A stretch of DNA of 64,000 bases from an uncultured Gammaproteobacteria bacterium (lineage in GTDB: Bacteria > Patescibacteriota > Microgenomatia > UBA10105 > UBA927): positions 17,501 through 81,500 of the forward strand of contig CAYGFH010000003.1 in assembly GCA_964349125.1 (NCBI GenBank), written 5' to 3'. The notes below the pieces were generated by a model. That model was not told the DNA's origin. It made no database searches and saw only the letters and a list, made by a program, of their open reading frames with translations. Positions 46,663 to 62,468 of the stretch are shown here, piece by piece; the first letter of the stretch is position 1; each line of letters begins with the position of its first letter. The translations under genes were made by a program, and so were the position numbers.

Positions 46663-46664
46663 AG

Positions 46665-48773
<2,109 letters not shown>

Positions 48774-52210: not shown

Positions 52211-52972
52211 TCAGGGCACTAGCTCGAAGGTGACTGTGAGAGTCTTCGTGACCGTACCGGTTCCGGGTTCTATGCCGCCGCCACCTCCGCCACCGCCTTC
52301 CATTCTATATACAGGCATTGATTGATATCCTTCAATGACACTTGACACTGCGCCGAGCTTTTTATTCGATGCCCTGGCTATTTGAATTGCCTTGTCCTTT
52401 GCGTTTTTAAGTGCGGCATCGATAAGGGAATTTTCCGCTTCGCCCGTTTCATCAAGCACAAAGTTGGGCCCGTAGATATTTGTGGCACCACTCTTTGTGA
52501 GGATATCAGTCAAACCCTGAGCAGCATCCACATTGGTCAGTGTTATTTCGACAGTGTTATTCACCCTCCATTGCCCCTGGCGGACTTTCTGCCTGCCGTC
52601 TTCATAATACGTTTCTTCATTTTGGTAGACATTGAGATTTTGTGTTTTGATGTTATCGCTTGTCACACCAAATGTTTTTACCGCTTCGATGATTGCGGTT
52701 ACCTTTTTATTTACTTCGCTCATTGCGGTGTCCTTATTATCCGATATCGCATTTACACCTGCTGAGAAGGTAGCCTTTTGATTTTTTTGTTTTGTCTTGG
52801 CTTCTCCGACAACAGTGACGTAGTCTCCCTGGGAGAGCTTCACTTTTCCCCACAGGATATTTCTCCACGGAATAATATATGCAGCAACCATACAGGTCAT
52901 CCCAAGTATGATCGCGATCAGTACAATATCAAGTCTAGAATTTTTTGCGTCCATAGCTACCTCCACTTCCAT
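52211..52972 (-). CDS. SIMPL-domain (DUF541 / YggE-like) protein, membrane-anchored
   Basis: An N-terminal TM helix is followed by a SIMPL domain (...KTQNLNVYQNEETYYEDGRQKVRQGQW...). A C-terminal Gly-rich stretch is present. Confidence 0.65.
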   Translation of the reverse strand: MEVEVAMDAKNSRLDIVLIAIILGMTCMVAAYIIPWRNILWGKVKLSQGDYVTVVGEAKTKQKNQKATFSAGVNAISDNKDTAMSEVNKKVTAIIEAVKTFGVTSDNIKTQNLNVYQNEETYYEDGRQKVRQGQWRVNNTVEITLTNVDAAQGLTDILTKSGATNIYGPNFVLDETGEAENSLIDAALKNAKDKAIQIARASNKKLGAVSSVIEGYQSMPVYRMEGGGGGGGGIEPGTGTVTKTLTVTFELVP

Positions 52973-53963: not shown

Positions 53964-54701
53964 ATGAAAGATATAAGCGGTGCAGTTATAGTTTTTTTCA
54001 TTGCGCTTTTTGCATTTATTAAACTCGCGGGACCAATTCCGCTTTCTATTTCGAGCGTTGTTACCAATAAAACAGATTCCTTTACCGTGACAGGCGAAGG
54101 AAAGGTATCACTCTCGCCGGATATCGCAAAGATCCAGGCTGGAGTCACAGCTCAAAGCTCATCGGTAAAACAGGCGCAGCAGGATATAAATAAAAAAATA
54201 AACGCAATATCAGACGCAATTAAAAAATTGGGCGTCGATACAAAAGATATTCAGACAGCACAATATTCGGTGCACCCGCAGTATGATTACCGTGACGGTA
54301 GACAGAAAATAACTGGATATGAAGCCGCCACCACATTATCCATAAAAGTGCGAGATATGGAAAAGGCAAATGATGTCATTGATGTGGCTACGGCAAACGG
54401 CGCAAATCAGATCGGTGGAATATCCTTCGATGTTGATGATCGTACAAAGGTGGAGAACGAAGCCCGTGCGAAAGCCGTGGAAGATGCCAAGAAGAAAGCC
54501 GAAATGGCAGCAAAAACAGCAGGATTCACGCTTGGGAGAGTTATTAACTATAACGAAAACACCGGTGGTGATATGAGACCCGTTCCTATGATGTACGCCA
54601 AGACTGAAATGGCAGGAGCAGCAGACCAAGTTGCATCAACAATAGAACCGGGAAGTCAGGATATCATGGTAACTGTGTCTCTCAGTTACGAAATACGATA
54701 A
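53964..54701 (+). CDS. SIMPL-domain (DUF541) protein, second paralog
   Basis: An N-terminal TM/signal is present, and ...TAQYSVHPQYDYRDGRQKITGYEA... parallels the paralog at 52211-52972. Confidence 0.65.
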   Translation: MKDISGAVIVFFIALFAFIKLAGPIPLSISSVVTNKTDSFTVTGEGKVSLSPDIAKIQAGVTAQSSSVKQAQQDINKKINAISDAIKKLGVDTKDIQTAQYSVHPQYDYRDGRQKITGYEAATTLSIKVRDMEKANDVIDVATANGANQIGGISFDVDDRTKVENEARAKAVEDAKKKAEMAAKTAGFTLGRVINYNENTGGDMRPVPMMYAKTEMAGAADQVASTIEPGSQDIMVTVSLSYEIR

Positions 54702-54743: not shown

Positions 54744-56033
54744 CTAACTTCGGATAAGTTTGTACCCGCGGGTTACAACGGTTTCGATGCTGTATGGGCT
54801 GGATTGAGACTTCAGTTTGCTTCGAAGTCTCGCTATGAGACGGTCAACCGCCCAATCTGATACACCCATCTCGTGGCTCTCAGGCCATACCGTATCAATT
54901 ATGGCTTCCCGTTCACAGAGTTGCCCGACATGAGATTCCAGGTAGCTAAATAATGCAAATTCTTTTTTGGTGAAGTCGCGTCCAAGCTGTGTGTTTCGTG
55001 AAAGTGAGTTCACATACGACGCAAACAATGGGCTAAAAAACGTGGGCTTACCGTCCGTACCCTGCACAATGCCGGTGTTCCACAGATACACCGCATGCTC
55101 TTTTTCCACGGTAGATATAGGACCACCTTTGTTTATTTGAATCACTATATCTTTCTCATGTTTTGTAAGGCTATCAAACAATTCCTCGGACTGGAATACA
55201 ATCTGCTCGTCCAATGGGAGTAATTCGATGAACGCGTCTTCAGACGCATCTCCAGCCTCTTCGTGCAGGCGTATGAGCGCATACTGCACAAACTGCACAT
55301 ACCCACCCGATACCTCCAGTATACGATCCAGCAACTTGGCAGATGGAGCTACATGATACTGTTCAATCAGTGTCTGTGCGACGATCTTCATATCGCCGTC
55401 AGTGGCAACAGGCAGATACATATCTTTGGTAAATACTGACAAAAATTGTTTTTTGAATATGGTTGGAGATAAGTCAGGAAGGGCTCGGTGGCTAGTAAAT
55501 ACATAGGATAGTTGTTGTTTTACTGAATCACGAAGACCTAACAGGTTACTGAAGAAATCCTGTGTGAACACTTCTGAGAGCCTGTCGAAGCGTATGAGAA
55601 ACAACGTCGGATACAATCCAGCCGCAATAATCGTTTCTATCACTTTCCGTACGCTATCAAGTGTAAAAAAATGATCCTTCAGCTGTATGCTTTGGACAAA
55701 CAATTTTCGGCATGCTTTCTTATCGGTCTCAGACAGACTGGAATGCTCAGCGGCATCAACAACCCGAGTCAGTAACAGTGTCCAAAACGCGCTTAAATTG
55801 CGCTCAATGAGATCATTTAAATCCACCTGCACAAATAATTGCGGTTGATTAGTCCGTATGTACGTGGATGGGACTTGTGGATGGTTGATGAAAAACCTGA
55901 GAAAATTACTGATACCCACACGTTTCATCCCGACGAGTACGACTGATTTCTGTTGCTGTATATAGTGTCCCAATTGTTCTGCTTCTTTTTTTCTGAATTC
56001 TATCGGATAGGTTGTTTCAGTCACCTGTTTCAT
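54744..56033 (-). CDS. Transcriptional regulator with an N-terminal AAA/ORC-like NTPase-like domain (degenerate Walker A) and a C-terminal OmpR/PhoB-type winged-helix DNA-binding domain
   Basis: The C-terminal LFSYLESHVGQLCEREAIIDTVWP...VDRLIARLRSKL...TVVTRGYKLI is a trans_reg_C domain. The N-terminal VVLVGMKRVGISNFL is P-loop-like but lacks GK[ST], and LFLIRFDRL is Walker B-like. Confidence 0.6.
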   Translation of the reverse strand: MKQVTETTYPIEFRKKEAEQLGHYIQQQKSVVLVGMKRVGISNFLRFFINHPQVPSTYIRTNQPQLFVQVDLNDLIERNLSAFWTLLLTRVVDAAEHSSLSETDKKACRKLFVQSIQLKDHFFTLDSVRKVIETIIAAGLYPTLFLIRFDRLSEVFTQDFFSNLLGLRDSVKQQLSYVFTSHRALPDLSPTIFKKQFLSVFTKDMYLPVATDGDMKIVAQTLIEQYHVAPSAKLLDRILEVSGGYVQFVQYALIRLHEEAGDASEDAFIELLPLDEQIVFQSEELFDSLTKHEKDIVIQINKGGPISTVEKEHAVYLWNTGIVQGTDGKPTFFSPLFASYVNSLSRNTQLGRDFTKKEFALFSYLESHVGQLCEREAIIDTVWPESHEMGVSDWAVDRLIARLRSKLKSQSSPYSIETVVTRGYKLIRS

Positions 56034-56294
56034 AGCCGTATTGTAGCATGATTTGCGTTTGACTCAAACGACACTCATGTTACCTACCATTCCACTCAAG
56101 ACACGTACCTTCTCGAGCCATATGATACTGATGTGTTCATGAAAATATTGTGATGTTCAGAATTTATCATTTTCACCTGATCGTGCCTGTTGTCAGATGG
56201 ATGTCAGAGAAAAAATACCTCTTAGTCAAGCGAGATGGGCTGTTGTAATCCACAATACAACATACACAGCTCCAGCTGTGAATTTTTTTGATAT

Positions 56295-58085
56295 ATGAGA
56301 AGCGCAGAATACGATCATTTGGGGAGTCTCGCAAACGCTCATAGCCAGGAAGGGCTCTGGAGCAATCGGGGGTTGCACCCTCGGGCACCGTTAGAGGATA
56401 TTTCGCACACTCCAGTACAAACGCTCCTTGATCAGGCACAATACAATGTATATGAAAGCATAAAAAGCCCTGAACACCTTCCTCCCAACGGTACTGTAGT
56501 GTATGTACGCACACATGAAACAGTTTCCGGAAGTAGGGTGAATATACCGGTTATACAAAGGTCGCATATACCTAAAATAGATCCCGAATCAATACAGAGG
56601 GCAAAAGACGCATTTGGACTTCATACTGACGCAGAATTTCAAGGGATATTGGATGAACGTGTGAGAATGAGATTGAATCATGTGGGACGATCTGAATTAG
56701 CTGAAAAACGCGGTGAAAAAACAGTTGCTGAGCTTATACATACAATAATGAATTTTGATCAAATATGGACCCATGATTTTGACGGAACACTGACTTATTC
56801 CAAAATTTTACGAACCAAAGAAGGCAAGCTTGACGTCAAAGAATATTATAGAAGAGGTGATATCCAAACGCTGATGAATCTTGATGCGATTATTGTGAAA
56901 TCTCTCTTGGGTATTCCGCAGCATATTTGTACAGGAAAAGGATGGAATTTTAGGATTGTGAAAGAGTATATGAGGGAACGAACCGCGCAACTCGCGGAAG
57001 CATTTGGCATGCAAAAACGCATGCATGACGGTGCGTTACAATCGCTTCTGGACAGAAATCGTGGTGTATTTCTTGCAATTTCTGTAGGCAACGGTGCTGA
57101 TACCGAAGAAATTATGAGGAATGAAAAGTTGGTACACAAAGTCTTACCAATTTCGGCTTGGGAGGGAATGGCTAAACATGCCGATTTGCTCAGGAAATCA
57201 ACGAAAAAAGAGAGAATTGAACAAATTGAAAGAGTTAAAGGCATTCATGGATATGTACCGTATAACGTTGAAGCGGATACGTATAAACCTGTTGATCCTA
57301 AAAAATGTACAAACGTTGTGCATCGGGTAATAAAGAAACCTTTGACTCAACGAAATTACAATAAACGTGAAATTTCGCCGAAGTTTACGGCAGAAGAAAC
57401 CGCTCACATCCAGAAGTTGCAACGCGCAGTTCAGGATCATGCGTTATTTGAGGAAGATCAGAATACAAAATGTAACTATGTCATTAATTTTGAAGCCATA
57501 ATAGCTAATCAGGATGGCATACAGGATGAATGGAAGAAGGCAACCGGTGTTACCATACGATCAGTAGATGATTTCATGAGGGCATTCAGACGATTATCAA
57601 AAGATTGGAATATAAAATCGTATGTCAATGAAGCGCATGGCACCATTTACGTTGATATTAACCCTCCACGCATGCATAAGGGAGTAAGCGCCAGACTGGT
57701 AAAGAATGCCGCGCAATTTTTTATGCGACGTGATCTCGAAAAAGCAGGAATATCCCCTAAAATGGCGCCAAAACTGATGACGTTTACAATGGCAGACGGA
57801 CATGTCATCGGTATACAGAATGACAGTGATCTGCTACACAGGACGCGGGGTGCTGTCGTAACCAAAAAGAAAGAACGATATCACAAACCTGATGCCAAGG
57901 GATACCCAGTATACTTGAGTGATATCCTGGGTATTGAGGATCCACTGACTCATGCGTACACGTATCTATATGACACAACACTGTTGAGTTGCCCGACCCC
58001 GATAGGAACTTTTGTTGAAGACGTGGTCCATAATCTGAATGATGAACATGTCAGAAATATGAAAAGATATAAGAGAAGAACATAA
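56295..58085 (+). CDS. Hypothetical 596 aa protein with a HAD-like DxDGT motif, first gene of the sugar-kinase / Leloir operon
   Basis: It has no TM segments. WTHDFDGTLTY at about residue 160 resembles HAD motif I, as in phosphomannomutase or cN-II type HADs. A possible motif IV-like SVGNGAD lies about 100 aa later. The rest has no recognisable family. Confidence 0.45.
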   Translation: MRSAEYDHLGSLANAHSQEGLWSNRGLHPRAPLEDISHTPVQTLLDQAQYNVYESIKSPEHLPPNGTVVYVRTHETVSGSRVNIPVIQRSHIPKIDPESIQRAKDAFGLHTDAEFQGILDERVRMRLNHVGRSELAEKRGEKTVAELIHTIMNFDQIWTHDFDGTLTYSKILRTKEGKLDVKEYYRRGDIQTLMNLDAIIVKSLLGIPQHICTGKGWNFRIVKEYMRERTAQLAEAFGMQKRMHDGALQSLLDRNRGVFLAISVGNGADTEEIMRNEKLVHKVLPISAWEGMAKHADLLRKSTKKERIEQIERVKGIHGYVPYNVEADTYKPVDPKKCTNVVHRVIKKPLTQRNYNKREISPKFTAEETAHIQKLQRAVQDHALFEEDQNTKCNYVINFEAIIANQDGIQDEWKKATGVTIRSVDDFMRAFRRLSKDWNIKSYVNEAHGTIYVDINPPRMHKGVSARLVKNAAQFFMRRDLEKAGISPKMAPKLMTFTMADGHVIGIQNDSDLLHRTRGAVVTKKKERYHKPDAKGYPVYLSDILGIEDPLTHAYTYLYDTTLLSCPTPIGTFVEDVVHNLNDEHVRNMKRYKRRT

Positions 58086-58092
58086 GTAACAA

Positions 58093-59196
58093 ATGATTGA
58101 CAAACTCATAGAGCAGAAGTACAGTGTGAACATTATGGATTTACAAACTATCACAAAAAACTTTGTACAAGAGCTTCAGGATGCCAACACTGGCAAAAAA
58201 ACCAGTCTGCCGTTTATAGTCCATGAAATTCCTGGGGCCTCAATCGTCCCTGAGGGGAAAACATTTCAGGTACTCAAAATCGGCGGATCGATACTCCAAA
58301 AATCCAGAGTCGTATCAGAGGGTGGAAAAACAATTATTAAAACATTGGAAGAAGAACAACTCCCCGTATTTACCACTAAAGATTTGTTTCTTTCTACGAT
58401 GGATAAACATATTGATCCGGATCTCGAATATCTCGCCCTCAATTTTGCATACCCGATGACACCTGTCATGCGAGATGGCGTACTGGACGGTATACTCACC
58501 AATGGAACAAAAGAGCATGCATTTCAGGGACTGGTTGGCCAAGCTGTGGGTGAAACCATAGAGTTATATATCCAGAGTAAGTACAATCGAAAGATTCGCG
58601 TGGCAGTTGCCAATGATACGATCTGCCTAACAATGGCGGGACTCAGTAAGTATCCTGCGACATCCATAGCAGGGGGAATTGTGGGAACGGGATTGAATTT
58701 TGCGTTTTTCCTCGACCATACGCATCTGGTCAACCTCGAAGCCGCAAATTTTGATAAATTTGAGCAGTCTGAAGAGGGCAAGCAAATCGATGCGCAGTCA
58801 CTCACACTCGGGAGATCCCTGTATGAAAAAGAAACCGCAGGGGGATACCTCTACTATCATCTCAATTTACTGCTGACCAAGAATCAGATTAAACACCCGT
58901 CTATAGAGAGTACAAAACAATTGGACCGGTTAGCCCGCGGAAATATCCAAAAGGTGTCGAAACTCGCCAGATCTCTATTTGAACATTCCGCGTCACTCAT
59001 AGCGTGTGAAGTGGCCGGCATAACAAATTATGCCAAGAGGGATATGACCTTTGTCATGGAGGGCAGTCTGTTTTGGGTCGGCTGGCACTATAAAGAAATG
59101 GTCGAAGAAAAGGTAAAACAGTTGACCCCCTATACGGTACAGTTCGAAGAGATAAAAGACTGTGGCATTATCGGGGCTGCAAAGCTCATTTCGTAA
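58093..59196 (+). CDS. Hexokinase-family (eukaryote-type actin-fold) sugar kinase
   Basis: AVANDTICLTMAG matches the hexokinase AIVNDTVGTL motif, GGIVGTGLNFAFF matches GIIVGTGTNACY, the C-terminal VMEGSLFWVGWHYKEM matches AVDGSVY..P, and GIIGAAKL is present. Confidence 0.75.
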   Translation: MIDKLIEQKYSVNIMDLQTITKNFVQELQDANTGKKTSLPFIVHEIPGASIVPEGKTFQVLKIGGSILQKSRVVSEGGKTIIKTLEEEQLPVFTTKDLFLSTMDKHIDPDLEYLALNFAYPMTPVMRDGVLDGILTNGTKEHAFQGLVGQAVGETIELYIQSKYNRKIRVAVANDTICLTMAGLSKYPATSIAGGIVGTGLNFAFFLDHTHLVNLEAANFDKFEQSEEGKQIDAQSLTLGRSLYEKETAGGYLYYHLNLLLTKNQIKHPSIESTKQLDRLARGNIQKVSKLARSLFEHSASLIACEVAGITNYAKRDMTFVMEGSLFWVGWHYKEMVEEKVKQLTPYTVQFEEIKDCGIIGAAKLIS

Positions 59197-59202
59197 GAAC
59201 GT

Positions 59203-60462
59203 ATGGACAAAGCCGTGCGACTACCTAACAAAGAATTCGATTTACCTTCGCGCATCACAAGAGAATCAGAGCATTTTGCCAACCTATTCGGGACACGTCC
59301 CACCGTCATCGCCAGAGCACCAGGCCGGGCGGAAATTCTGGGCTGTCATACTGATTACAATTGGGGATACGCCCTTGCTGCAGGGATCAACAAAAGCACG
59401 CTCACCTTTATGAGCAAGCGGGAGGATAACACCATCGCGCTGTTCTCGAACTCGTACCCTCAAAACACACCCGTGATCTTTTCTATAGATTCTCTGGTAC
59501 GGGATGAAGAACTGACATGGCCAAACTATAGTAAAGCGGTAGTTCGTGAGCTTCTTCGCAACCAGTACACAGTAGGAGGCGCAAATATCCTCATAGACAG
59601 TACCGTGCCAAAATCAGGAGGTGTATCCAGTTCCGCAGCGCTGGAACTTGCCATCGCTTATGGTCTTTTGGCACTCTATGATCAGGAAATTGATGTGACA
59701 AAGATCGCCCTGTTATGTAAAAATGCCGAAAACAGTGATCTGGTAAAAAGCCCGTGCGGTTTTCTGGATCAGGGAGCTTCGGCATATGCCAAAGATGACG
59801 GCATGGTATTTATGGATTTTTTGCCGTCCGGCACATCTCCGGTTTCTGCTATTGATGTTATACCTGCACAATTCTCTACATCCGCTTCGTTCGTAATACC
59901 TGTTGATCCCACGTTGGAGCGCCAATTGGGTGAATCCGGGTATGTGGTTCGAAGACAAATGTGTGAGGAGAGCTGGCCATTTTGGTCTCAGGTGCTCGGA
60001 CGCGAAATAAAAAGCTTACGTGACGTTTCGTACGATGAGTTCATGACACACCGGGATGCGCTCGAGAAACATAACCCGATCATGCGCATGCGTGTGGAAC
60101 ACATCATCACGGAAAATAAACGAGTGCTGGACGCTGTGGAGGCACTGAAACAAAAAGATATCGAGACATTTGGCAAACTCTTAACCGAAGCCGGAAGAAG
60201 CTCCCTCGAACTGTATCAGCTCGATGAAAACACACCACAACTCACATTTTTGGTTGAAAAAGGAAGGGATCTCCCCGGGGTGATCGGAATGCGCAATATG
60301 GGCGGCGGATTTTCTGCGATTGCACTCGCATTGGTCAAAGATGAGCAAATGAAGGAATTCCAATCCACGTTGTCCTCTCTGTATATGGCAGAGTTTGGAA
60401 GAACACTTGAGTTTATCGAGTTTACCCCAAGCCAAGGGGCTTCAGTACTCGTACAGCCATAG
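59203..60462 (+). CDS. galK: Galactokinase (GHMP kinase)
   Basis: ARAPGRAEILGCHTDYNWGYAL is the galactokinase signature, and PKSGGVSSSAALELA is GHMP motif II. Confidence 0.85.
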   Translation: MDKAVRLPNKEFDLPSRITRESEHFANLFGTRPTVIARAPGRAEILGCHTDYNWGYALAAGINKSTLTFMSKREDNTIALFSNSYPQNTPVIFSIDSLVRDEELTWPNYSKAVVRELLRNQYTVGGANILIDSTVPKSGGVSSSAALELAIAYGLLALYDQEIDVTKIALLCKNAENSDLVKSPCGFLDQGASAYAKDDGMVFMDFLPSGTSPVSAIDVIPAQFSTSASFVIPVDPTLERQLGESGYVVRRQMCEESWPFWSQVLGREIKSLRDVSYDEFMTHRDALEKHNPIMRMRVEHIITENKRVLDAVEALKQKDIETFGKLLTEAGRSSLELYQLDENTPQLTFLVEKGRDLPGVIGMRNMGGGFSAIALALVKDEQMKEFQSTLSSLYMAEFGRTLEFIEFTPSQGASVLVQP

Positions 60463-60469
60463 TGTAAGT

Positions 60470-61489
60470 ATGATAGATTTTACTAAACCTCACCGAAGAA
60501 GAAATCCATTGATAGGGGAGTGGGTATTGGTGTCTCCTCACCGGGCAAAGCGCCCCTGGCAGGGGAGTATAGAGCCCACACAACCAGCACAAGCACCAGA
60601 GTATATGGAGGACTGTTATCTGTGTCCTCACAATACCAGGTCAAACGGGGAGAAAAATCCTGACTACACCAAAACATTCGCGTTTACCAACGACCATGCT
60701 TCGTTGCTCCCTGACGCTCTAGGAGATTCTCCGGAAGATACCGATTTGCTATACGCAGTGCAGGAGCGGGGGCTCTGTCGTGTCATCTGTTACTCGCCAA
60801 AGCACAATACAACCATGGCGGATTTATCTGTGGATGAAATCAAAGAAATAGTCCTCACATGGAAAAATGAGTATGAAACCATCGGGAAAATGGATCAAAT
60901 ATCCTATGTTCAAATATTTGAAAACAAAGGCCCTCTTATGGGAGCAAGCAGCCCCCACCCACATGGACAAATATGGGCAAACGAACACTTGCCGACGATT
61001 GTCCAAAAAGAACAACAGCATCAATTGGCATATAACCGGGAACATTCATCTCCGTTGCTCCTTGCATATGTACAGAGGGAACTGGAGAAACAGGAACGAC
61101 TTGTCATTGAAAATGAAGCATTTGCAGTCGTGGTACCGTTTTGGGCAACATGGCCATATGAGACGATGGTCTTACCAAAACGGCATATCCGATCCCTGAG
61201 CGATATGAGAAGTACAGAGCACACCCAGCTTGCGGACATATTAAAACGGCTCACATCCCGCTATGATAAGCTTTTTTCCACACCATTTCCGTACTCAATG
61301 GGCATCCACCAAAAACCAACGGATAGAGAAGAACATCCCGAATGGCAATTCCATATGCACTTTTACCCGCCGCTCCTTCGAAGTAGTACAATAAAAAAGT
61401 ATTATGTAGGGTACGAAATGATGGCTGAAGGACAACGGGACATATCGCCTGAGTCAGCAGCAAAAACGTTACAGGAGATCCATGACTGA
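60470..61489 (+). CDS. galT: Galactose-1-phosphate uridylyltransferase
   Basis: RRNPLIGEWVLVSPHRAKRPWQG, the CxxC zinc site (CYLCP), and the HPHGQIWA HxHxQ active site are present. The start is taken at the ATG at 60470, after the galK stop. Confidence 0.85.
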   Translation: MIDFTKPHRRRNPLIGEWVLVSPHRAKRPWQGSIEPTQPAQAPEYMEDCYLCPHNTRSNGEKNPDYTKTFAFTNDHASLLPDALGDSPEDTDLLYAVQERGLCRVICYSPKHNTTMADLSVDEIKEIVLTWKNEYETIGKMDQISYVQIFENKGPLMGASSPHPHGQIWANEHLPTIVQKEQQHQLAYNREHSSPLLLAYVQRELEKQERLVIENEAFAVVVPFWATWPYETMVLPKRHIRSLSDMRSTEHTQLADILKRLTSRYDKLFSTPFPYSMGIHQKPTDREEHPEWQFHMHFYPPLLRSSTIKKYYVGYEMMAEGQRDISPESAAKTLQEIHD

Positions 61490-62468
61490 TACCCAGTTTT
61501 CATCGACAATAGAACATACAGAAGTGTACGGTACGGTTGTTACGTTACGCTACACGCCATCGTCCGACGGAAAAAAACCCATTACCGTATCCGTAGCCCC
61601 CGATCGGGGGAGCAATATGTTTGCTTTTCGGTATGGGGAGAGTGACATTATCTATACAGAACCAGAACTTCTAAAGACCTGTGGATTTACGGGAAATTTT
61701 GTTCTGTTTCCCACACCCAACAGAGTCAAGGATGCACAGTACACGTGGCATGGTCGAACCGTCAGACAGAAAAAACACACCGAGGCACGGATACTCCATG
61801 GACTCGTGTACGATGAGTCCTGGCAGTTCGATGCCCCGATCGTTTCCGACGATGCTGTTTCAGTAACTACGTTCATATCCATCACAGGGCAATCGTCTCT
61901 ATATGAGTCTTATCCATTTTTATCTACATTGAGGCTTTGCTATACACTTCGATCCAGTGGAGTCACTGTTACATATACAGTGAATAATGACGGGGATGAG
62001 GACATGCCGTTTGGGTTTGCCTTGCATCCGTATTTTTCCCTCCTATCCGGCAGTGAAAACACATACATATCCGTACCTGCAAAAAGCTGGATGGAATCAC
62101 CCAGCGATACGTTACTGCCAACTGGAAATCTTATAGACGTTTCCGGTAAACCCTATAATATAAATACTCCACGGCCTATAGCAGAATTATCGCTTGATCA
62201 TGTGTACACAGACCTGGTGCCCAGGCAGTATGCGACTATCGAATACAGGACACTCGGCCTACGGCTATCACTTCTCACCACGGAAGATTTCACGCATACG
62301 GTGGTGTATACCGGTCACAAAAATGCGGTGTGTATCGAAAATCAAACGTGTTCCACAGACGCCGTTAACCTTTCAAACCGCGGGTACATACGGGAATCGC
62401 ACGTACTCACACTCAAGCCGGACGCCACACACAAAGGAACTATTTCATATACCATCAATTCCTTATAA
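61482..62468 (+). CDS. galM: Aldose 1-epimerase (galactose mutarotase-like)
   Basis: FALHPYF is the aldose-epimerase motif. It has a beta-sandwich family size. There is an ATGACTGA overlap with galT. Confidence 0.7.
   Translation: MTDTQFSSTIEHTEVYGTVVTLRYTPSSDGKKPITVSVAPDRGSNMFAFRYGESDIIYTEPELLKTCGFTGNFVLFPTPNRVKDAQYTWHGRTVRQKKHTEARILHGLVYDESWQFDAPIVSDDAVSVTTFISITGQSSLYESYPFLSTLRLCYTLRSSGVTVTYTVNNDGDEDMPFGFALHPYFSLLSGSENTYISVPAKSWMESPSDTLLPTGNLIDVSGKPYNINTPRPIAELSLDHVYTDLVPRQYATIEYRTLGLRLSLLTTEDFTHTVVYTGHKNAVCIENQTCSTDAVNLSNRGYIRESHVLTLKPDATHKGTISYTINSL

Follow-up and report, generated by a model that had tools for sequence, protein, structure and literature searches.

How is a regulator built that stands back to back with a sugar operon in a bacterium with few regulators, and what would it control? 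The question is raised by a gene in a 64,000-nucleotide stretch of contig CAYGFH010000003.1 (assembly GCA_964349125.1), called the window here, by which the whole stretch of DNA analysed is meant. The gene lies at 54744-56033 on the minus strand, and a spacer of 261 nt separates it from the next gene (start 56295), the first of an operon that continues with a hexokinase-like gene, galK, galT and an aldose 1-epimerase gene. An earlier interpretation made from the letters and translations (below, the sequence-only reading) had described this divergent layout across 260 nt, with an unnamed first gene, and the layout is confirmed. Members of the Candidate Phyla Radiation (CPR)/Patescibacteria have tiny genomes, few regulators and no genetics, and to our knowledge almost nothing is known about gene control in them.

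The gene product is a one-component transcription factor confined to Microgenomates (CPR/Patescibacteria). It joins what is, by alignment, a pseudo-NTPase module to a C-terminal OmpR-type winged helix, and probably regulates its own gene as well as sugar entry and central carbon metabolism, without being specific to galactose. The account that we favour, with reservations given below, is that this dead-NTPase regulator binds a site of three repeats in the spacer, most likely activates the sugar operon, controls its own gene and serves a small regulon for sugar entry and central carbon metabolism. The parts of the protein, with amino acid (aa) ranges where needed and structural limits from an AlphaFold2 (AF2) model, are as follows.

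54744..56033, minus strand: regulator gene, 429 aa, ATG-to-stop open reading frame (ORF); pseudo-STAND NTPase module plus C-terminal OmpR-type winged helix
55416..55952, minus strand: P-loop NTPase-like five-stranded alpha/beta core, aa ~28-206; strands 30-34, 65-71, 141-147, 176-181 and 202-206 (AF2)
55908..55931, minus strand: degenerate Walker A, G35-M-K-R-V-G-I41-S42, with Ile41 at the Lys position (alignment with GxxGxGKS relatives)
55578..55601, minus strand: degenerate Walker B region, F145-L-I147-R148-F-D150-R151-L, with Asp to Ile147 and Glu to Arg148 (alignment with relatives); strand ends at 147 (AF2)
55260..55400, minus strand: helical lid, aa ~212-258, with SGGYVQ against GGHP of the relatives (AF2 and alignment)
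55038..55241, minus strand: internal winged helix of the nucleotide-binding oligomerisation domain (NOD) module, aa ~265-332; helices 291-301, 308-313 and 315-320, hairpin 323-332 (AF2)
54756..54974, minus strand: OmpR/PhoB-type winged-helix DNA-binding domain, aa 354-426 (Pfam Trans_reg_C)

The N-terminal domain

The AF2 model, built from a 60-sequence alignment of homologues, has a mean predicted local distance difference test score (pLDDT) of 88.6 and a predicted template-modelling score (pTM) of 0.82. The layout of a STAND NOD, i.e. a nucleotide-binding domain followed by a helical domain and a winged-helix domain, is present in the model. Its best structural neighbour is the Pyrococcus 'Walker-type ATPase' PAB2304 (2qen), at 16.7, followed by the wheat NB-ARC resistosome (15.6), CED-4 (15.4) and archaeal Cdc6/Orc1 (15.1), and then by MalT (14.7), TnsC (13.8), SSO1545 (2fna; 13.7) and BrxC (13.5). 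Foldseek ranks these neighbours in the same order, and the structural alignments to 2qen, Cdc6 and CED-4 (259-281 residues) cover the internal winged helix. By fold, the N-terminal 340 residues are thus shown to be a STAND-type nucleotide-binding oligomerisation module, comprised of P-loop core, helical lid and winged helix.

Direct sequence searches with the N-domain are far less telling. Nothing was matched in Pfam or NCBIfam at E <= 0.1; among the 60 homologues AAA_35 was matched weakly by 10 (best E 2.5e-5) and nSTAND2 by one. ATPase_2 (PF01637) had no Pfam match in the regulator or in the 60 homologues, and the archaeal ATPase is a structural neighbour only. The sole PDB match of the N-domain profile is to the Walker A segment of 2qen and is marginal (E 0.037-0.083); in this alignment liGmkRvGisnFlRfflnh is set against LLGIRRVGKSSLLRAFLNE (E 0.037), so that GMKRVGIS pairs with GIRRVGKS.

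The descent of the domain is evident from intermediates. A profile of the N-domain run against 1.84 billion cluster representatives gave 1142 matches at E <= 1e-3, including, below the family itself, a second tier at E 1e-23 to 1e-31. Many second-tier proteins are NTPases of ~450-480 aa with a C-terminal Trans_reg_C domain; others have no DNA-binding domain or carry an N-terminal Ser/Thr kinase. Most of their motifs are canonical, with Walker A segments such as IGLHAIGKS, IGVASVGKS and VGMSGVGKS and Walker B segments such as FFLDEFD, FLFDQFD and VMDRFD. The nSTAND1 gathering score (27.1) is exceeded by P0220 (35.6 bits), P0232 (32.7 bits) and P0239 (38.3 bits). Homology of the N-domain to STAND proteins follows from these intermediates, which reach the nSTAND1 cut-off; the regulator itself has no NTPase match in Pfam at E <= 0.1. 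The gene neighbours of such relatives, e.g. sortase/pilin or AAA_35/FGE-sulfatase, are unrelated.

Conservation was judged in three family alignments (A1, A2 and A3). The GMKRVGIS and FLIRFDRL blocks are among the most conserved of the family, being invariant or nearly so in 60 homologues. G35, R38, G40 and I41 are invariant in the Walker A segment, Ile41 being so in all three alignments; Arg148 is invariant or kept in at least 90%, and Ile147 is the majority residue. The lid motif GGHP of the relatives has become GGYVQ. The regulator fails both the Walker A (GxxxxGK[ST]) and the Walker B (hhhhD[DE]) definitions of STAND NTPases. As far as alignment can tell, the N-domain is a pseudo-NTPase: it is a STAND-type NOD whose ancestors were true NTPases, and none of the three canonical ligands for nucleotide and Mg2+ is left. 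The domain is nevertheless under strong purifying selection. A canonical ATP switch would be impossible, because the Walker A Lys, the Walker B Asp and the catalytic Glu are gone.

The sequence-only reading had seen in this domain a degenerate, ATPase-derived module and no receiver, with GMKRVGIS as a Walker A that had lost its Lys, and the AF2 fold, the second-tier relatives and the alignments bear it out on these points, placing the domain with P-loop ATPases of the STAND/ORC-Cdc6/archaeal-ATPase kind. For Walker B, it had chosen the correct region in FLIRFDRL, but D150 is not the Walker B Asp; this residue aligns to the third acidic residue of the ancestral 'DEFD' and was rejected, and the motif is more degenerate than had been noted.

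In three distant relatives, namely P0236 (781 aa), P0242 (642 aa) and P0261 (759 aa), the counterpart of the N-domain is preceded by a Ser/Thr protein kinase in the same chain. P0236 and P0261 also end with an OmpR-type domain, which gives a kinase-NOD-winged-helix architecture, and P0236 has its own Lys-to-Leu change in Walker A.

The DNA-binding domain

Trans_reg_C (PF00486) is the sole Pfam domain of the regulator (aa 354-426, E 6e-16, 58.7 bits against a cut-off of 26.2) and is matched by all 60 aligned homologues. The linker before it is flexible or disordered, with pLDDT below 50 at aa 347-349 in the AF2 model. In NCBIfam and PDB sequence searches the matches are confined to the DNA-binding ends of PhoB, WalR/YycF, RstA, CadC and ToxR, and the C-terminus of the model superposes on solved DNA-binding domains of the OmpR family (structural comparison, figure about 11-12). 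A Cys at aa 373 (LCERE; 54915-54917) is kept in at least 90% of the family and is also found in the distant relative P0216.

The sequence-only reading had considered the C-terminal position of this domain unusual, on the ground that it is N-terminal in response regulators. This was mistaken, since the NCBIfam matches lie at ~150-225 of regulators of ~225 aa; the domain is C-terminal in OmpR/PhoB response regulators too, and the unusual part is its N-terminal partner. No Response_reg match was obtained with Pfam in the regulator or in the 60 homologues, and the N-terminal fold is that of a P-loop NTPase. Pfam likewise gave no match to a BTAD domain in the regulator or its homologues and none to repeat-sensor domains (TPR, WD40, LRR); the OmpR domain closes the chain, whose last residue is aa 429.

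The family and the loci sampled

More than 1500 homologues of the regulator, of ~430 aa, exist at 90% clustering. The best 120 are nearly all 390-450 aa long, share 46-96% identity and cover the query almost end to end; their named hosts are Gottesmanbacteria, Levybacteria and 'Patescibacteria group'. Annotation of the homologues goes no further than 'helix-turn-helix domain-containing' or 'hypothetical'. A pattern scan of one genome per GTDB species placed relatives at 201 positions, the best 80 of which each come from a separate species assembly and include Gottesman-, Levy-, Davies- and Woesebacteria, i.e. Microgenomates. The family occurs in at least 201 Microgenomates genomes at species level, and its identity across classes with differing gene neighbours is 43-96%. 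The other window genes gyrB/gyrA, gapA-pgk, folD and SIMPL are syntenic with Gottesmanbacteria contigs, which assigns the window to a CPR bacterium of this group. Loci were fetched with 10 kb on either side of the regulator gene; 70 non-redundant loci served for the analysis of upstream regions, with word counts over 69, and the three-repeat pattern described below was counted over 88 fetched loci.

A role in a defence system was rejected: PADLOC defence-system models gave no match at E <= 0.01, and the neighbours are housekeeping and sugar genes.

Many third-party metagenome-assembled genomes that carry a Microgenomates-type regulator gene and synteny (L007, L009, L010, L012, L013 and others) are titled 'uncultured Gammaproteobacteria bacterium', and a few such records are titled Vitreimonas, Sulfotelmatobacter or Acidiferrales; these titles look like placeholder or wrong taxonomic labels. 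Within locus L002 (9321-10827; GCA_040960095.1) the regulator gene is followed directly by a gene for a stand-alone receiver (135 aa, Response_reg) and a 368-aa gene, an arrangement not seen in the other loci.

A three-repeat element in the spacer

The spacer between the regulator gene and the operon contains, or is bounded by, the following features. The first gene of the operon is referred to as U596, and L003 is the related locus with which the spacer was aligned.

56191..56208, plus strand: tandem direct repeats TGTCAGA-tgga-TGTCAGA (56191-56197 and 56202-56208) with an 11-bp period; TCTGACA in regulator orientation
56225..56231, plus strand: GTCAAGC, the third in-phase repeat, placed 22 bp after the second and 24 nt before the operon -10
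56256..56261, plus strand: putative -10 TACAAC (TACAAT in L003) of the U596-hexokinase-galKTM operon, from a block conserved between window and L003; no recognisable -35
56040..56067, minus strand: promoter-like element of the regulator itself, TTGAGT-16-TG-n-TACAAT (promoter scan; conserved in L003)
56295..58085, plus strand: U596, 596-aa HAD-IIB-like protein, first gene of the putative target operon; no Pfam match
58093..59196, plus strand: hexokinase-like gene (Pfam)
59203..60462, plus strand: galK (Pfam)
60395..61489, plus strand: galT (Pfam)
61482..62468, plus strand: aldose 1-epimerase (Pfam)

Read from the side of the sugar operon, the element is TGTCAG-N5-TGTCAG-N16-GTCAAG (56191-56231), with spacings of 11 and 22 bp. 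The sequence-only reading had pointed to 56034-56294 as a place to look for direct repeats, and the two TGTCAGA copies 11 bp apart, with a third repeat at 22 bp, were found there. The strict pattern is matched once in the whole window (56191-56230; 0.00 expected). Across the fetched loci it has 19 matches in 18 of 88, all in one orientation relative to the regulator gene.

The same words emerge when the regions upstream of regulator genes are compared. CCTGACA is enriched 13-fold (24 of 69 loci) and GCTTGAC 20-fold (28 of 69), along with the promoter hexamers TACAAT and TTGnnn. In 37 of 70 loci the region upstream of the regulator gene contains CTGACA, in most cases at a distance of 50-130 nt from the start codon and almost always in the orientation of the gene (a reverse-strand copy was seen in 3 loci), and the commonest spacing between copies is 11. 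When sites are anchored on the proximal CTGACA, GACA stands at offset -11 in 18 of 37, and in four at most at any other offset. A 26-nt matrix made with the window and L003 left out finds its best match in the 64 kb, on both strands, at 56187-56212 (22.3 bits; the next scores 16.8). Its 20-nt core scores 21.0 bits at the spacer site; when the window was shuffled 20 times, the highest score was 18.2.

The conserved islands in the alignment of the two spacers are the blocks of the third repeat and the -10, and the regulator's own promoter. A segment of ~110 nt (56070-56185) that parts the site from that promoter is partly absent or poorly conserved in L003. It includes D1, a 17-nt imperfect direct repeat (56072-56088 and 56093-56109; 21-bp spacing), which was considered as a binding site and set aside as not conserved in L003. 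Rfam gave no match to an RNA element in the spacer at E <= 1.

A perfect palindrome, CACAGC-TCCA-GCTGTG, followed by a T-run, lies at 56265-56280, between the putative -10 and the U596 ATG, and occurs nowhere else in the window (0.14 expected). L003 keeps the arms but has a different central 4 nt; the palindrome might serve as a second operator, used by another factor, or form a 5' hairpin.

Genes that carry the site

Sites of at least 13 bits are present upstream of 33 of 81 regulator genes and of 7 of 9 U596-like genes; by eye, the three-repeat element is at all nine of the latter. Other genes with such sites upstream encode glucose-6-phosphate isomerase (PGI; 2 of 3), FGGY kinases (2 of 4) and family 2 (GT2) glycosyltransferases (2 of 2), together with gyrB at the gapA/gyrB spacer (2 of 6). 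Among ~400 control genes, which include those for leucyl-tRNA synthetase (LeuRS), RuvABC, L25, YidC, FolD, SIMPL and GyrA, there was one match, below 17 bits and 259 nt from the LeuRS start. Of matches of at least 17 bits outside the regulator's own promoter, 23 of 25 are intergenic.

The layout is repeated from gene to gene. At U596-like genes GTCAAG lies ~20-30 nt upstream of a -10-like box with no evident -35, and the element is kept where the regulator gene is 0.8-3 kb away or beyond another gene. A like layout is found before a fructose-bisphosphate (FBP) aldolase/phosphatase gene (Pfam FBPase_3, E 3e-75), FGGY kinase genes, a hexokinase-like gene and gapA.

In the window a weaker candidate for a second site can be recognised between gapA-pgk-gpm (minus strand) and gyrB (plus strand):

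46705..46721, plus strand: TTGACA-ggga-a-CTGACA (TTGACAgggaaCTGACA), 11-bp period; 11.8 bits, not significant alone

Stronger equivalents occur upstream of gyrB in L012 (19.7 bits) and L017 (20.8 bits). As annotated from a TTG at 46695, the gyrB ORF is over-extended, its conserved N-terminus starting near 46851; the spacer to the divergent gapA-pgk-gpm genes is then ~190 nt (46663-46851) and contains the 46705-46721 copy. The sequence GTCAAGCGAG is common to the gapA/gyrB spacer and the U596 promoter side.

Of the 72 loci for which at least 3 kb of upstream sequence was available, 44 carry a carbohydrate or glycolysis gene in the first 4 kb upstream, divergent in 43 of the 44, and 2 of 72 have such a gene downstream. 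The partners depend on lineage: U596-like plus hexokinase-like genes, other large proteins plus hexokinase-like or FGGY kinases, or, in Levybacteria, FBP aldolase (FBA), FBPase and phosphoglycerate kinase (PGK). The sequence-only reading, which saw a local sugar-responsive regulator, is thus upheld in part: regulation of the divergent sugar operon is very likely, given the repeat site in the spacer and at U596 orthologues, but specificity for galKTM is not, given galK and galT in 2 of 72 relatives and sites at unlinked promoters. The same architecture does occur in some relatives that lack sugar genes nearby; carbohydrate genes stand upstream in 44 of 72.

The first gene of the operon, U596, matches nothing in Pfam or PADLOC, and a homologue search returned just two close sequences. 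Orthologues were recognised in L003, L004, L008, L009, L012, L013, L082 and L084; that of L004, a 556-aa protein, matches U596 by BLASTP (E 1.5e-35). The large neighbours in L001 (641 aa), L002 (672 aa) and L005 (635 aa) were rejected as orthologues, BLASTP finding no similarity. The protein evolves fast, with 18-31% identity outside the closest pair, and the residues invariant in 9 orthologues are D161, D163, T165, T213, G214 and K462 (HAD-type), plus a GD..ND-like motif. A U596-like gene is usually followed by a hexokinase-like kinase gene, directly or after one gene. Judged by these residues, U596 may be a HAD-IIB-type hexose-phosphate phosphatase or mutase.

Proposed mechanism and alternatives

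On the evidence of comparative genomics, the OmpR-type winged helix would bind the three in-phase direct repeats at 56191-56231, a site within the bidirectional promoter region between the regulator gene and the HAD-like/hexokinase/galKTM operon. The regulator would most likely activate the U596-hexokinase-galKTM operon, because the proximal repeat adjoins the -35 position of a promoter that has a -10 and no -35, as with PhoB and SARP activators. It would also control its own gene, and the members of its regulon, as predicted from the site, would be the genes for the HAD-like protein and hexokinase, an FGGY kinase, PGI, the gapA operon and FBP aldolase/phosphatase. More speculatively, the dead NOD could supply the oligomerisation that links subunits bound to the repeats, and a metabolite, e.g. 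a sugar phosphate, could switch the module from a remodelled pocket rich in invariant Arg and Lys residues (K37, R38, R148, R151). A bolder version combines these ideas. The STAND switch would have become a nucleotide-independent sensor of a glycolytic sugar phosphate, with the OmpR domains oligomerised on the repeats, and the protein would be a master regulator of sugar entry and of glycolysis/gluconeogenesis in Microgenomates; this we hold to be doubtful.

Several observations weigh against the favoured account. About half of the regulator genes, mainly those of Levybacteria, lack the site and have a plain promoter upstream, and the syntenic FBA (1 of 14) and PGK (0 of 28) neighbours are without it. 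In the window the site lies ~125 nt upstream of the regulator's own promoter; in most species the repeats abut the -35. The repeat core CTGACA is one base from the sigma-70 -35 hexamer TTGACA. Protein and putative binding site are linked by co-occurrence only, and the call of activation depends on a putative -10 box. The hydrophobic I41 and I147 could simply fill the former pocket. The list of 'sugar' gene clusters was compiled after the neighbours had been seen, and for this reason the asymmetry between upstream and downstream genes is the fairer control.

The alternative that survives best keeps the same protein and site and makes it a repressor, with the repeats occupied in the absence of a sugar signal, both promoters blocked, and an inducer releasing them. 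Repression is common among local sugar regulators; the proximal repeat overlaps the -35 contact region, and in most species the tandem repeats directly adjoin the regulator's own -35. Yet promoters of the U596 type have a -10 and no -35-like hexamer at the right distance, as is typical of activator-dependent promoters, and OmpR/PhoB/SARP-type domains whose repeats lie upstream of the -35 or overlap it are usually activators (PMC10936776). Repression is accordingly judged an unlikely account, albeit a serious one.

The three-repeat element could instead belong to another factor, either a different regulator or an alternative sigma factor, with the regulator gene being a member of the regulon and no more. 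The closeness of the core to TTGACA, the presence of TTGAC within GCTTGAC, a promoter scan that scored CTGACA-16-GAAAAT as promoter-like and the absence of a site from half of the regulator genes are all in keeping with this. Against it, the proximal CTGACA is ~31-35 nt from the TACAAT -10, with a separate TTGnnn -35 between, and ~400 promoter-bearing control upstream regions gave one weak, distant match; on the same two grounds of wrong spacing to the -10 and near-absence among the controls, the CTGACA repeats were rejected as plain -35 boxes. Tandem direct repeats at 11 and 22 bp are an OmpR-type signature, and the element accompanies the regulator gene irrespective of which gene lies upstream of it. 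An owner other than the regulator seems improbable.

The divergent layout and shared site in the window and L003 could also be understood if the protein were a galactose- or sugar-inducible local regulator dedicated to the hexokinase-galKTM operon, its N-domain sensing galactose or another sugar. A regulator for galactose alone is too narrow, however, because galK and galT lie within 4 kb of the gene in only 2 of 72 relatives and the partners mostly belong to sugar phosphorylation or central carbon metabolism. The site is also at PGI, FGGY kinase, GT2, FBP aldolase/phosphatase and gapA/gyrB promoters and at U596-like genes kilobases from the regulator, and the family keeps its identity across classes with different neighbours; such dedication is most improbable. 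Equally hard to credit is a still-working nucleotide switch, as in MalT and AfsR, that binds ATP/ADP non-canonically with K37/R38/R148 in place of the Lys: S42 and the P-loop glycine scaffold are kept, invariant basic residues lie in or next to the loop, and a graded loss is suggested by relatives whose Lys is intact while Walker B reads DR or DQ, but the changes Lys to Ile, Asp to Ile and Glu to Arg co-occur, invariant or nearly so, and remove the phosphate- and Mg-binding ligands, and the GGHP lid motif has become GGYVQ.

Comparison with known regulators

In its proposed function the protein is akin to the STAND-linked activators MalT and AfsR and to direct-repeat binders of the OmpR/PhoB/SARP type. 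Its closest counterparts are relatives such as P0232, P0220, P0264 and P0228 (Anaerolineaceae), which combine nSTAND1 (PF20703) with a C-terminal Trans_reg_C domain. They have the same domain order and a similar length (~450-480 aa), can be aligned end to end with the regulator family and share its SNFLRF, VDLN, NLRxLRD and SYVxT blocks. They keep the GKS of Walker A and mostly the D[EQR] of Walker B, whereas the regulator family is degenerate, and their gene neighbours are unrelated, whereas the regulator family is a sugar-gene-linked CPR branch.

AfsR and the large SARPs of Streptomyces, like the regulator, hold an OmpR-type DNA-binding domain and a STAND NOD in one polypeptide. SARP OmpR-type domains bind direct repeats with a spacing of 11 or 22 bp, which lie beside the -35 or overlap it, and act as activators, and the NOD of AfsR and the large SARPs modulates the DNA-binding domain (PMC10936776). 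In SARPs, however, the DNA-binding domain and BTAD are N-terminal and are followed by NOD and TPR, whereas in the regulator the order is reversed, with neither BTAD nor a TPR sensor. AfsR binds and hydrolyses ATP, whereas the catalytic residues of the regulator are gone, and SARP targets are antibiotic clusters, whereas the predicted targets here are sugar and central-carbon genes.

MalT, the activator of the maltose regulon in E. coli, is a STAND protein of ~900 aa with a SUPR/TPR-like maltotriose sensor, ATP dependence and a LuxR-type helix-turn-helix (HTH). The regulator, at 429 aa, differs in having no sensor repeats, a dead P-loop and an OmpR-type winged helix (Trans_reg_C, not GerE). PAB2304 (2qen) and SSO1545 (2fna), of the ATPase_2 family, have an intact GKS in Walker A and no OmpR domain, and the sequence match is marginal (E 0.037). 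OmpR/PhoB response regulators share the C-terminal DNA-binding fold. PhoP binds 7-bp repeats with a 4-bp spacer (PMC4832192), and the arrangement of the present repeats is that of PhoP/PhoB. The regulator differs from these proteins in having no receiver domain and no phospho-acceptor Asp, and no histidine kinase was seen among the annotated genes that adjoin it in the window.

The protein is therefore not a response regulator, since it has no receiver, nor a SARP, since the order is reversed and BTAD absent, nor a MalT/LAL protein, since there is no LuxR-type HTH. The fold of a STAND NTPase is kept, but the sequence does not satisfy the motif definitions of that class; as a Trans_reg_C protein it is bona fide. 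The regulator is a lineage-specific pseudo-NTPase branch of one-component regulators built from NOD and winged helix, with a predicted site and a predicted regulon.

Other features of the window

The galT ORF, with a TTG start, overlaps the end of galK by 68 nt (60395-60462); the true start is probably further downstream, because the Pfam match begins at residue 30. Paralogous SIMPL/DUF541 genes at 52211-52972 (minus strand) and 53964-54701 (plus strand) flank folD, as they do in L003 and L007.

Implications

Literature searches found nothing relevant on this architecture, on the family, on AAA_35 or nSTAND1 linked to OmpR domains, or on any CPR regulon. The three-repeat site and the predicted regulon are new; the domain result largely confirms the sequence-only reading. 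A family annotated only as 'helix-turn-helix domain-containing' gains a testable DNA site and a predicted regulon for sugar phosphorylation and central carbon metabolism. The family also offers a natural case of a STAND/AAA+-type module without the canonical nucleotide-contacting residues, useful for the study of how pseudo-NTPases are reused as scaffolds or sensors, and the U596-like target, a HAD-IIB-like protein of 500-600 aa without family assignment, is an enzyme worth characterising. If the protein were indeed a sugar-phosphate sensor and master regulator, it would, as far as the literature searches go, provide the first regulon, DNA motif and effector logic for any CPR bacterium.

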